Source of the DNA: a phage
Length of the DNA: 64,000 nucleotides
Direction: 5' to 3' (one strand)
Sequence record: PZ019084.1
This document shows, piece after piece, positions 34,517 through 45,250 of the stretch; position 1 is the stretch's first letter; each line of letters starts with the position of its first letter. The notes below the pieces were generated by a model. It had not been told where the DNA came from. It ran no database searches and was given only the letters and a program-made list of their open reading frames with translations. The position numbers and the translations under genes are program-made.

Positions 34517-34529
34517 TTTATTCTCCTTT

Positions 34530-34575
34530 GTTTGTGTAAGATAATACTATCACAAAGGAACCATACTGTAAACAA
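34530..34575 (-). promoter_or_regulatory. T4-type early promoter (minus strand GTTTAC-N18-TAGTATTAT)
   Basis: Minus-strand sequence TTGTTTACAGTATGGTTCCTTTGTGATAGTATTAT upstream of the 122-aa ORF. Confidence 0.5.
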
Positions 34576-34597
34576 CTTTGTGCAATCTTTGGAAAAT

Positions 34598-34627
34598 AAA
34601 AAAAAAAGGACTCCCGAAGGAGTCCTC
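34598..34627 (-). terminator. intrinsic terminator (GGACUCC-UUCG-GGAGUCC followed by U9 on the minus strand)
   Basis: Perfect 7-bp stem with a poly-U tract immediately 3' of the 58-aa ORF. Confidence 0.75.
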
Positions 34628-34630
34628 AAC

Positions 34631-34807
34631 TTATGCTTTCTGCTTACCAAAACGAGAAGCATCATCTCGAAGAACCGCACGTGCTCGACGCATGATCTTC
34701 TCAACAGTTTGATTGATACGAGAGTTCGACCCACGCTTGTAGCCAGCGCGTTTAGAATCACCAACTTTCTTTTCAACTGCTTTCTTTGCTTTAACTTGTT
34801 TTGCCAT
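34631..34807 (-). CDS. small highly basic protein (58 aa from ATG; track ORF extends to 34849)
   Basis: MAKQVKAKKAVEKKVGDSKRAGYKRGSNSRINQTVEKIMRRARAVLRDDASRFGKQKA; Lys/Arg-rich, followed by a strong terminator. Confidence 0.55.
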   Translation of the reverse strand: MAKQVKAKKAVEKKVGDSKRAGYKRGSNSRINQTVEKIMRRARAVLRDDASRFGKQKA

Positions 34808-43210: not shown

Positions 43211-44380
43211 TTAAAAATATTTTTTAAAACTCATCATAACTTTATCATCAACATCATTATCAATCTGTGCTACAAGATAAGATGATAGTTCTACTTCTTG
43301 TGGCGCGGATTGAACATTATCAGAATTAAGATATTCACGAATCCAAGGATACGGGTGTTTAACCGGAGCATCGGTAATTGGGCATGGAAGACCGCACTGT
43401 TTCATACGAGATACAGTTAAGTAATCAATAAAGCTCCACATGCTATTTGTATTTAATCCAGGAACATCGCCATCTTTAAATAAATGAACTGCCCAGTCTT
43501 TTTCTTGACGGTTAACTTCCATGAAAATATCAACTGCTTCTTGTTCACACTCTTGGGCAATTTTAACCCATTCATCGCCATCAGTGCCAAGTTGAAGTTG
43601 ACGAATAATATATTGAGTGCCTTTAAGGTGAAGCTGTTCATCACGAGCAATGAACTTCATAATCTTGGCATTACCTTCCATGATTTCCATGTTTTTATGG
43701 AAGTTAAAGGTACATGCGAAAGATACATAAAAACGAATAGCTTCCAATGCGTTGATTACATGAAGGCAAAGATAAAGAGATTTCATTAATGCTCGTTTAG
43801 TACATTCAACAACTTTGCCTAACTCTTCTTTACGAAATCCTTCTGATAAAATTCCTTCATAATCTTCAACCGCATTCTGATATTCACGAGTCTTAACTAG
43901 AACATCATCATAATAGCGACCAATGGACTCGGCACGTTTCATAATAGCTTTATCTAATACAATCTCATCAAACACCTTTGACGGATCAGTATAAAGATTT
44001 CGCATAATATGAGTGTATGAACGACTGTGAATAGTTTCACTAAAAGTCCATGTAGCAACCCATGTATCAAGGCTTGGGTCTGAAATTAATGACATAAGTA
44101 CAGCAGACGGTGCACGACCCTGAATGCTATCCAAAAGTGATTGATACTTCAGGTTATTAGTAAAAATATCTTGCTGATACTGAGGAAGCTTGTTAAATTG
44201 TGCAGCATCCATCATTAAGTTTACTTCTTCAGGACGCCAGAAAAATGACAACTGCTTTTCAGTTAAATCTTCAAAAACTTTATGGCGTTGAATATCATAA
44301 CGCGCAATACCAAGACCTGAACCGAAGAACATAGGTTCTTTTAAAACATCAACTGGATTTGTATTAAAAACTGTAGACAT
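43211..44380 (-). CDS. nrdB: ribonucleotide reductase small subunit NrdB (uninterrupted, 389 aa)
   Basis: Single continuous ORF of the length expected for spliced T4 NrdB; no intron. Confidence 0.9.
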   Translation of the reverse strand: MSTVFNTNPVDVLKEPMFFGSGLGIARYDIQRHKVFEDLTEKQLSFFWRPEEVNLMMDAAQFNKLPQYQQDIFTNNLKYQSLLDSIQGRAPSAVLMSLISDPSLDTWVATWTFSETIHSRSYTHIMRNLYTDPSKVFDEIVLDKAIMKRAESIGRYYDDVLVKTREYQNAVEDYEGILSEGFRKEELGKVVECTKRALMKSLYLCLHVINALEAIRFYVSFACTFNFHKNMEIMEGNAKIMKFIARDEQLHLKGTQYIIRQLQLGTDGDEWVKIAQECEQEAVDIFMEVNRQEKDWAVHLFKDGDVPGLNTNSMWSFIDYLTVSRMKQCGLPCPITDAPVKHPYPWIREYLNSDNVQSAPQEVELSSYLVAQIDNDVDDKVMMSFKKYF

Positions 44381-44414
44381 ATTATTCTCGCTTATTATAG
44401 GTTTAAATATTTAA

Positions 44415-45206
44415 TCACATATTATGTATAAGCACTTCAGTCTGAAATGATGCACCTTTCTTTTGCTTCCTGTACATGGTTTCAAAATATTCGATTTTGA
44501 AATTATTAGAAAGGGCCCAATCTTTTAGAATATAATTATTAATATCGTCTGATAGATTATTAGTGATAATAAATTTAGACTTTGAGCGTTTAATTTTATC
44601 TAATAATTCTAATTCATCCTTTTCTTCCCATCCTGAATATTTAAATTTAGTAGAAAGATATGGCGGGTCAATGAATAAATTTTTGTTTTCAAAATCTAAA
44701 TCTTTGAATGATTTATTACTAAATGTAAATCGGTGCTGTCTATTTTTAAATTCAGAAAATTTATCCTGTTGAGACTTATTAAAAGAAGTTCTAGAATACT
44801 TGGCTCTATTGGCGAAAGCCGCATTATAGTTACCATTACTAGAAAATCGGATTAACGAACTGAATGAAAATAAATGTAAAACATAAAGATATAGTCCATT
44901 TTTGGTTTTATCATACTCTTTTGACAGATTATAAAAGGGTGCTGAATCTTTGTCATTCAAATTGAAGTCTTCAATAATTTGAACTATATCATTGATTGAA
45001 GATACTTTCATCTTTTTATACATGTCTATAAGAGGAGTGTTAATATCATTACATATAACATCTCTCTGGCAATTCATAGAAAATCCAAGACCGCCACAAA
45101 AAGCATCCAAAACAGGCTTATCGTCAAAGCGGTTTGAAAATTGTCTAATAAATGGCATATACTTGTGCTTTGCACCCGGATATGTTATTGCAGGTAGGTC
45201 TTTCAT
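44415..45206 (-). CDS. Dam-like N6-adenine DNA methyltransferase (263 aa)
   Basis: Motif order Y-x-G-x-K (ITYPGAKHKY), SAM-binding DAFCGGLGF, catalytic DPPY (LFIDPPYL); AT-rich coding sequence. Confidence 0.75.
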   Translation of the reverse strand: MKDLPAITYPGAKHKYMPFIRQFSNRFDDKPVLDAFCGGLGFSMNCQRDVICNDINTPLIDMYKKMKVSSINDIVQIIEDFNLNDKDSAPFYNLSKEYDKTKNGLYLYVLHLFSFSSLIRFSSNGNYNAAFANRAKYSRTSFNKSQQDKFSEFKNRQHRFTFSNKSFKDLDFENKNLFIDPPYLSTKFKYSGWEEKDELELLDKIKRSKSKFIITNNLSDDINNYILKDWALSNNFKIEYFETMYRKQKKGASFQTEVLIHNM

Positions 45207-45250
45207 GTTATTTCTCGTTTGTTAGTGACTCGTCCGTGAGTCAAATTATA

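Follow-up and report, generated by a model that had tools for sequence, protein, structure and literature searches.

In phage T4, the slot between nrdA and nrdB carries mobE (gene order nrdA-mobE-nrdB.1-nrdB), and the canonical T4-type dam gene maps elsewhere, between primase gene 61 and dCTPase gene 56, the position at which it was found here in phage vB_Eco_BGP (BGP). A preliminary description of the phage DNA analysed in this study (the window, a stretch of 64,000 nucleotides), which had given both of these map positions correctly, reported a gene for a Dam-like N6-adenine methyltransferase in the nrdA-nrdB slot. The locus raises the question of whether this gene is a relocated canonical dam, an additional dam paralogue, or a methyltransferase cassette installed at a hotspot of mobile elements. 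We refer to the gene and its product as dam2 and Dam2, which are labels coined here for the methyltransferase at 44415-45206 of the window. On the evidence described below, we consider it likely that dam2 encodes a functional orphan SAM-dependent N6-adenine methyltransferase of the D12/alpha class, with the T4Dam-type fold and of a lineage present only in T4-like phages, and that it is an accessory cassette exchanged by homologous recombination and independent of canonical dam.

Results

Location and junctions of dam2

The coding sequence of dam2 (44415-45206, minus strand) has an ATG start and a TGA stop at 44417-44415 and encodes 263 aa. It shares the orientation of its neighbours and is tightly spaced to them on the same strand, with 44 nt separating it from nrdA upstream (45251-47515, minus strand; 754 aa, uninterrupted, forming the upstream flank and recombination substrate) and 34 nt from nrdB downstream (43211-44380, minus strand; 389 aa, no intron, forming the downstream flank). 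In the window, denA and rnlA lie further downstream of nrdB, and the neighbours of dam2 were nrdA, nrdB, denA and rnlA in all loci. The td gene of the window (48073-48933) is uninterrupted, as are nrdB and nrdA, and neither group I introns nor I-TevI, I-TevIII or mobE were found in this nrdB/nrdA/td region. In 236Ecol005PP, the closest dam2-carrying relative, nrdA is split by a 'putative mobile endonuclease' (locus L001, 6232-6942), and nrdB of BGP has an intron with a homing endonuclease (locus L003, 5648-6457).

The nrdA side of the insert begins with the pre-existing nrdA-nrdB spacer (45223-45250, minus strand), which is common to empty-slot phages and contains, after the nrdA stop codon, the element TATAAT at 45250-45245 and a hairpin at 45243-45226 (minus strand; 6-bp stem, 6-nt loop, -7.5 kcal/mol, z -2.6). 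The nrdB middle promoter has been placed in the nrdA-nrdB spacer in phages that lack mobE (PMC2790892). The hairpin is kept in both empty-slot and dam2 phages, was found at the same position in loci L011, PhiKpNIH-6 (L005 and L006) and L004, and has changed in a compensatory manner in Marfavirus-type loci (GACTC/GAGTC versus GGCTC/GAGCC); its conservation suggests that it may serve the nrd operon as a functional element at the RNA or DNA level. Compared with the empty-site phage Sf25, the window diverges exactly at 45222, where an insert of ~820 nt starts that extends to ~44401. The insert opens with a cassette-specific 5' leader (45207-45222, minus strand; ACAAACGAGAAATAAC) containing a GAGA Shine-Dalgarno-like element. 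In several dam2 alleles, gene callers take as the start an in-frame ATG that lies four codons further upstream (MRNNMK...); the corresponding codon of the window is ACG, and translation must therefore begin at 45206. On the opposite side, the downstream spacer with the nrdB ribosome-binding site (44381-44414, minus strand; TTTAAACC...GAGAATAAT, followed by ATG TCT) is kept in all dam2 carriers and, together with codon 2 of nrdB (TCT in carriers, AGC in Sf25), is unlike the empty-site type. The layout of the junctions was identical in all carriers, in the order of nrdA stop, TATAAT, hairpin, short leader, dam2 and spacer.

As an optional insert in the same slot, situated within the nrd transcription unit and showing presence/absence polymorphism in T-even phages, dam2 resembles mobE, a free-standing HNH homing endonuclease gene (PMC2790892), although the two are unrelated in protein and function and Dam2 is without an endonuclease domain. 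Their insertion junctions also differ, because T4 mobE directly adjoins the stop codon of nrdA whereas the insertion point of dam2 is at 45222, past the hairpin, and the two inserts therefore entered the spacer at different points. Furthermore, mobE comes with a terminator inside it and an nrdB promoter of its own (PMC2790892), whereas the dam2 cassette is without a terminator-like site, none having been found in 44250-45450. With the nrdA-proximal promoter/hairpin on its upstream side, nrdB immediately after it and no terminator, dam2 would be co-transcribed with nrdA and nrdB.

Family assignment, predicted fold and maintenance of Dam2

The assignment to the adenine methyltransferases with the motif order of Dam, which had been proposed on the basis of three short motifs, was borne out. 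Y9-P-G11-A-K13, D34-A-F-C-G-G-L-G-F42 (FxGxG, 36-40) and D180-P-P-Y183 were all present and matched T4 Dam and EcoDam column for column in an alignment, and the linear order was that of the alpha class (Y9-G11-K13; F36-G38-G39-G41; a recognition hairpin at 115-134, from about F115 to R134; D180-PPY183). The Pfam search that had been proposed as a check gave a match to PF02086 (D12-class N6-adenine methyltransferase) with 85.1 bits against a cut-off of 22 (E = 8e-24), in which residues 9-245 of Dam2 covered profile positions 1-251 of 253. The PHROGs match was 'DNA methyltransferase' (phrog_56, E = 4.5e-36), and the best PADLOC model was 'orphan methyltransferase', no restriction endonuclease gene, as would be expected for a type II restriction-modification system, being found beside dam2 in any locus.

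The best solved relative of Dam2 was T4 Dam (1yfj, E = 4e-37). The AlphaFold model of Dam2 (pLDDT 87.5, pTM 0.87) matched the T4Dam chains with a TM score of 0.83 (Foldseek E = 4e-21); by Foldseek, the TM score was ~0.74 against EcoDam and 0.72 against DpnM. Dam2 thus shares with the T4/T2 Dam (PDB 1YFL/1YFJ/1Q0S) the PF02086 domain, the alpha-class order, a similar length (263 versus 259 aa) and the fold, and both are orphan enzymes of T-even-type phages in which the Lys loop, the intercalating Phe, the guanine-reading Arg and DPPY are conserved. With EcoDam and DpnM (PDB 2G1P, 2DPM), it shares the D12 class and the fold (TM 0.72-0.74), but the identity is 16-18%, and Dam2 is phage-borne and without a mismatch-repair or replication-control context. 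The curated Dam profiles set it apart. For NCBIfam TIGR00571 'dam', Dam2 scored 92.8 bits and the alleles of groups B and D 70.2 and 87.4 bits, respectively, all below the cut-off of 114.85, whereas the T4-type Dam passes with 234.8 bits; for NF008152, the EcoDam equivalog, the score was 31.5 bits against 441. Thus, Dam2 is a member of the D12 class with a predicted Dam fold, outside the curated Dam subfamily.

The gene was intact in all of the 10 alleles, with pairwise dN/dS values of 0.03-0.18. The pN was zero across codons 171-220, which include the DPPY region, and across codons 131-150, and pN/pS peaked in the hairpin codons 111-130 (0.57-1.05 versus ~0.15 overall, in a single 20-codon window and without a significance test). 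T4 Dam is dispensable in the laboratory, and dam2 is missing from ~99% of related phages; these facts would fit a catalytically dead or re-purposed Dam-like protein, such as a DNA-binding regulator or a decaying remnant. We regard this as highly improbable because DPPY, FxGxG and the full-length fold are intact in every allele, the dN/dS is low with no non-synonymous change around the catalytic motif, and the model is confident. As judged from these patterns in the alleles, dam2 is a real, intact and selectively maintained DNA adenine methyltransferase gene.

Lineage and distribution of Dam2

The alternative that dam2 is a canonical dam gene in another place proved wrong. Dam2 is 34% identical to the T4/T2-type Dam and forms a separate lineage and, with this identity and its location between nrdA and nrdB, is not an orthologue of the canonical T-even dam of genes 56-61. 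Scanned exhaustively with HMMER, a set of 1.84 billion representative proteins contained only one cluster at E<=1e-30, that of Dam2 itself, and the next match was the Dam of Pseudomonas phage PspYZU05 (34% identity, E = 6e-28), a protein that shares 54% identity with T4 Dam. When 5.8 billion proteins were searched by word index, four close clusters were found, with 99, 80, 78 and 76% identity, and none above 33% beyond them. In a neighbour-joining tree built by a fast distance method, the Dam2 alleles were monophyletic in 100 of 100 bootstraps and were placed beside, not within, the clade of T4-type Dam. The Dam of Alcaligenes phage Afa-NA1 (PV550095.1) was the sister of the Dam2 clade in 99 of 100 bootstraps; with 40.6% identity, it is closer to Dam2 than any other protein outside the clade and, like Dam2, falls below the TIGR00571 cut-off (91.4 bits), but it belongs to an unrelated 78-kb phage and adjoins topoisomerase genes instead of lying between nrd genes. 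By sequence comparison, then, dam2 did not arise as a recent copy of T4 dam. Dam2 is a narrow new subfamily of a well-known kind of enzyme in a known hotspot; dam2 is already annotated as 'DNA adenine methylase' in several GenBank records, and no prior description of the gene or of methylation in the carrier phages was found in the literature.

All members found share the nrdA-dam2-nrdB arrangement. The carriers are the Tequatrovirus phages 236Ecol005PP, T4_ev240, vB_Eco_NR1, ECO07P2 and BGP, the unclassified EP02SG and fDHCT2, Gelderlandvirus CF-SP2, Marfavirus PhiKpNIH-6 and three metagenomic contigs. The record of PhiKpNIH-6 (MN395284.1) opens inside dam2 (locus L005, 1-624, and the end of L006), which is why the gene is annotated there as a misc_feature only; the joined ORF misses three residues (KSK) at the junction, probably as an artefact of the assembly ends. 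No relative of Dam2 was found in IMG/VR contigs, in 185,579 representative bacterial and archaeal genomes (GTDB), or in complete E. coli genomes or PLSDB plasmids, and the JGI metagenome contigs gave one fragment with 30% identity and otherwise none. Among phage records matching the flanks, 8 of 694 carried dam2. In an evenly spaced sample of the flank-matching records, most had the empty slot (981-982-nt configuration), as does T2, and ~15% had the mobE configuration (1567-1660 nt), including T4, T6 and RB10. Dam2 is thus encoded by a rare alternative occupant of the nrdA-nrdB slot.

The preliminary description had also taken the AT-richness of dam2 as a sign of acquired cargo. The AT-richness itself is real, as the GC content of dam2 is 0.294 versus a window mean of 0.361 and falls within the lowest 1.1% of 792-nt windows, but its value as a sign of recent acquisition is weak, given that the GC3 (0.254) is like that of the neighbours (0.269 in nrdA and 0.251 in nrdB) and that no relative was found outside T4-like phages. 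Because the GC3 values are equal, the low GC is attributable to the amino acid composition of a protein rich in Lys, Asn, Phe and Ser, not to foreign codon usage, and low GC was rejected as an indication of foreign origin. Another stretch of lowest GC (~52100-52950, GC ~0.28) overlaps a 217-aa ORF (52272-52925, minus strand) beside a 302-aa ORF (51264-52172).

Exchange of the cassette between phages

The proposal that dam2 is a cassette at a mobile-element hotspot was upheld by its occupancy of the slot of T4 mobE and by mosaic patterns of exchange. Compared with the window, EP02SG was 78% identical in nrdA and 80% in nrdB but 95% in dam2 at the nucleotide level (97.7% aa identity in Dam2), whereas BGP and ENA contig ERZ9426318 showed the opposite pattern, with 96-98% in nrdA, ~91% in nrdB and 80.7% in dam2 (~80% aa identity in Dam2). 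The patch exchanged with EP02SG (44364-45284, minus strand; 95% identical) was delimited at nucleotide resolution, with its edges 31 nt before the nrdA stop (45284) and ~17 nt into nrdB (~44364). Alleles of group B had 94-96% aa identity across BGP (Tequatrovirus), CF-SP2 (Gelderlandvirus) and fDHCT2, and the Marfavirus-type dam2 alleles diverge about as far as their own flanks (75-76%). These identities show that the cassette moves between T4-like genera, and homologous recombination via the conserved nrd flanks is the simplest mechanism.

The sharp boundaries of exchange, within ~30 nt of the flanking genes, together with the sporadic occurrence of dam2 across genera and its location in a documented endonuclease hotspot (PMC2790892), could also point to a selfish cassette spread by endonuclease homing, either by its own enzyme or in trans, as by MobE for I-TevIII, with the methyltransferase as a passenger or protective cargo. 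This reading is quite unlikely, as the insert holds just one ORF, with PF02086 as its one Pfam domain and no HNH, GIY-YIG or LAGLIDADG endonuclease found in it, and enters at 45222, not next to the nrdA stop as mobE does. The nrdB-side edge of the EP02SG patch also lies at the nrdB start, not at codon 42, the MobE nick site (PMC2790892); coincidence of the patch boundary with the nick site had been hinted at by 60-nt bins and was rejected at nucleotide resolution. Moreover, strong purifying selection preserves dam2 as a methyltransferase gene, and plain recombination between co-infecting T-even phages is enough to explain the pattern. Apart from this, codon 42 of nrdB in the window (44255-44257), upstream of the FFWRPEE codons, is AAG, as in T2 and Sf25. 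AAG at this codon is the MobE-nicked type, described for T2, and T4 has CGG (PMC2790892); the phage of the window should therefore be a recipient of mobE homing, in which dam2 would be replaced.

Relation to canonical dam and sequence specificity

To place dam2 in relation to canonical dam, we compared the occurrence of the two genes. A tblastn search with Dam2, which also picks up T4-type Dam at ~1e-22, gave 457 places in 455 records, and the records with two places were PhiKpNIH-6, in which dam2 is split across the record ends, and BGP, in which Dam2 and canonical Dam occur together. The canonical dam of BGP is at 33963-34742. BGP was alone in this respect among the carriers, since 8 of 9 INPHARED carrier records had no second dam homologue; direct inspection of 236Ecol005PP and T4_ev240 revealed no dam between genes 56 and 61. 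No second dam was found within the window, which spans structural genes through gene 37 and has the canonical 56-61 locus outside it. Thus, the suggestion that dam2 is an extra dam was weakened, and Dam2 is the sole dam homologue in most carriers. The canonical locus is itself polymorphic for presence or absence. Phages without dam have a ~270-bp spacer between genes 56 and 61 with a small opposite-strand ORF only (PP434423.1, locus L002, 5154-5423; LR597657.1, locus L015, 3050-3318), and this interval in BGP has an extra 186-aa ORF and dam (OZ035849.1, locus L007, 9107-10803). T4-type Dam was present in ~182 of ~504 Tequatrovirus-grade records (~36%), about two thirds being without dam. Because so few of these records carry it, its absence from 5 of 6 Tequatrovirus carriers of dam2 is not evidence of compensation and fits chance (binomial P ~0.3), leaving it unproven that the two genes exclude each other or that dam2 replaces canonical dam in a compensatory way.

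The putative recognition residues of Dam2 were compared with those of EcoDam, whose sequence in the alignment was identical to PDB 4gol. In EcoDam, the first base pair is contacted by K9 and Y138 and the third by L122 and P134, the guanine of the fourth pair is read by R124, Y119 is the intercalating residue, and N120 forms a hydrogen bond with a base (PMC4417163). The EcoDam contact residues K9, Y119, N120, L122 and R124 (PMC4417163) have equivalents in Dam2. In the alignment, EcoDam K9 corresponded to T4 Dam K11 and Dam2 K13, Y119 to F111 and F115, N120 to S112 and S116, L122 to M114 and L118, R124 to R116 and R120, P134 to P126 and A130, and Y138 to R130 and R134, respectively, so that F115, S116, L118, R120, A130 and R134 are the residues of the Dam2 recognition hairpin. 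Dam2 differs from T4 Dam in having Ala in place of P126 and a 6-residue insertion after the equivalent of R130. This insertion, (A/D)KYSR(T/N), is conserved in the clade and follows the hairpin as residues 135-140 (A135-T140 in the window allele), with a low model pLDDT of 63 there. In addition, alleles of group B (BGP, fDHCT2, CF-SP2 and the ENA contig) have Lys at the position of the guanine-reading R120.

Because the window allele retains the main GATC-reading residues, GATC or a close variant is our best guess for the target, with the balance about even. Since Dam2 scores below the TIGR00571 cut-off and T4-type Dam above it, GATC specificity is not to be assumed from family membership, and the failed cut-off, the change of Pro to Ala and the insertion make another specificity possible. 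The Lys of group B and the pN/pS peak in the hairpin give a hint that recognition may have diverged. In the window (1-64000), GATC was the most depleted palindromic tetranucleotide, with 73 occurrences observed where a maximal-order Markov model predicts 217 (O/E 0.34; CTAG came next, with 0.66), and dam2 itself is without GATC; with this 3-fold depletion, a GATC enzyme would find few substrates.

These features bear on the reading that Dam2 is an additional paralogue beside canonical T4-type Dam, methylating a non-GATC sequence and thereby widening anti-restriction protection. The coexistence of both genes in BGP is consistent with it, as are the score below the NCBIfam Dam cut-off, the Ala for Pro and the invariant 6-aa insertion beside the recognition hairpin, the replacement of the guanine-reading Arg by Lys in group B and the highest pN/pS of the gene in codons 111-130. 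We nevertheless consider it rather unlikely because most carrier records lack a second homologue, K13, F115, S116, L118, R120 and R134 of the window allele align with GATC-reading residues, the closest solved relatives (T4Dam, EcoDam and DpnM) are all GATC enzymes, and the hairpin value comes from one untested 20-codon window.

Discussion

From its context, dam2 would most likely be transcribed with nrdA and nrdB before replication. By analogy with T4 Dam and EcoDam, Dam2 may read its site by the N-terminal Lys loop and the beta-hairpin, with the target adenine flipped into its DPPY pocket. It may thus methylate newly replicated phage DNA at GATC or a similar site, and such methylation could shield the DNA from restriction that is sensitive to adenine methylation. 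The mosaic patterns show that the cassette is swapped between T4-like genera through the conserved 3' end of nrdA and 5' end of nrdB. The gene dam2 has one insertion architecture in all carriers and is allelic with the empty slot and with mobE. No unusual mechanism is indicated, and Dam2 is a mechanistically ordinary orphan enzyme of the Dam family unless its specificity proves new.

It is also conceivable, although we think it doubtful, that Dam2 represents a diversifying anti-restriction cassette, in which allele groups with different and partly non-GATC sites circulate among T4-like genera via the nrdA-nrdB hotspot and act as an epigenetic 'coat' that can be exchanged. If this were true, the hairpin would be evolving fastest, the Arg-to-Lys swap in group B would belong to this diversification, and the 6-residue loop would add a new DNA contact.

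With dam2 as an orphan methyltransferase cassette, the homing-endonuclease hotspot between nrdA and nrdB of T-even phages has a third allelic state, which crosses genus boundaries by plain homologous recombination. Adenine methylation in T4-like phages would therefore come from two or more independent genes, each with a sporadic distribution. For the genomics of phage therapy, 'dam' annotations in Tequatrovirus are not all one gene, and near-identical phages may differ in methylation-dependent host range, both in their protection from restriction-modification and in their sensitivity to m6A-dependent Type IV systems.
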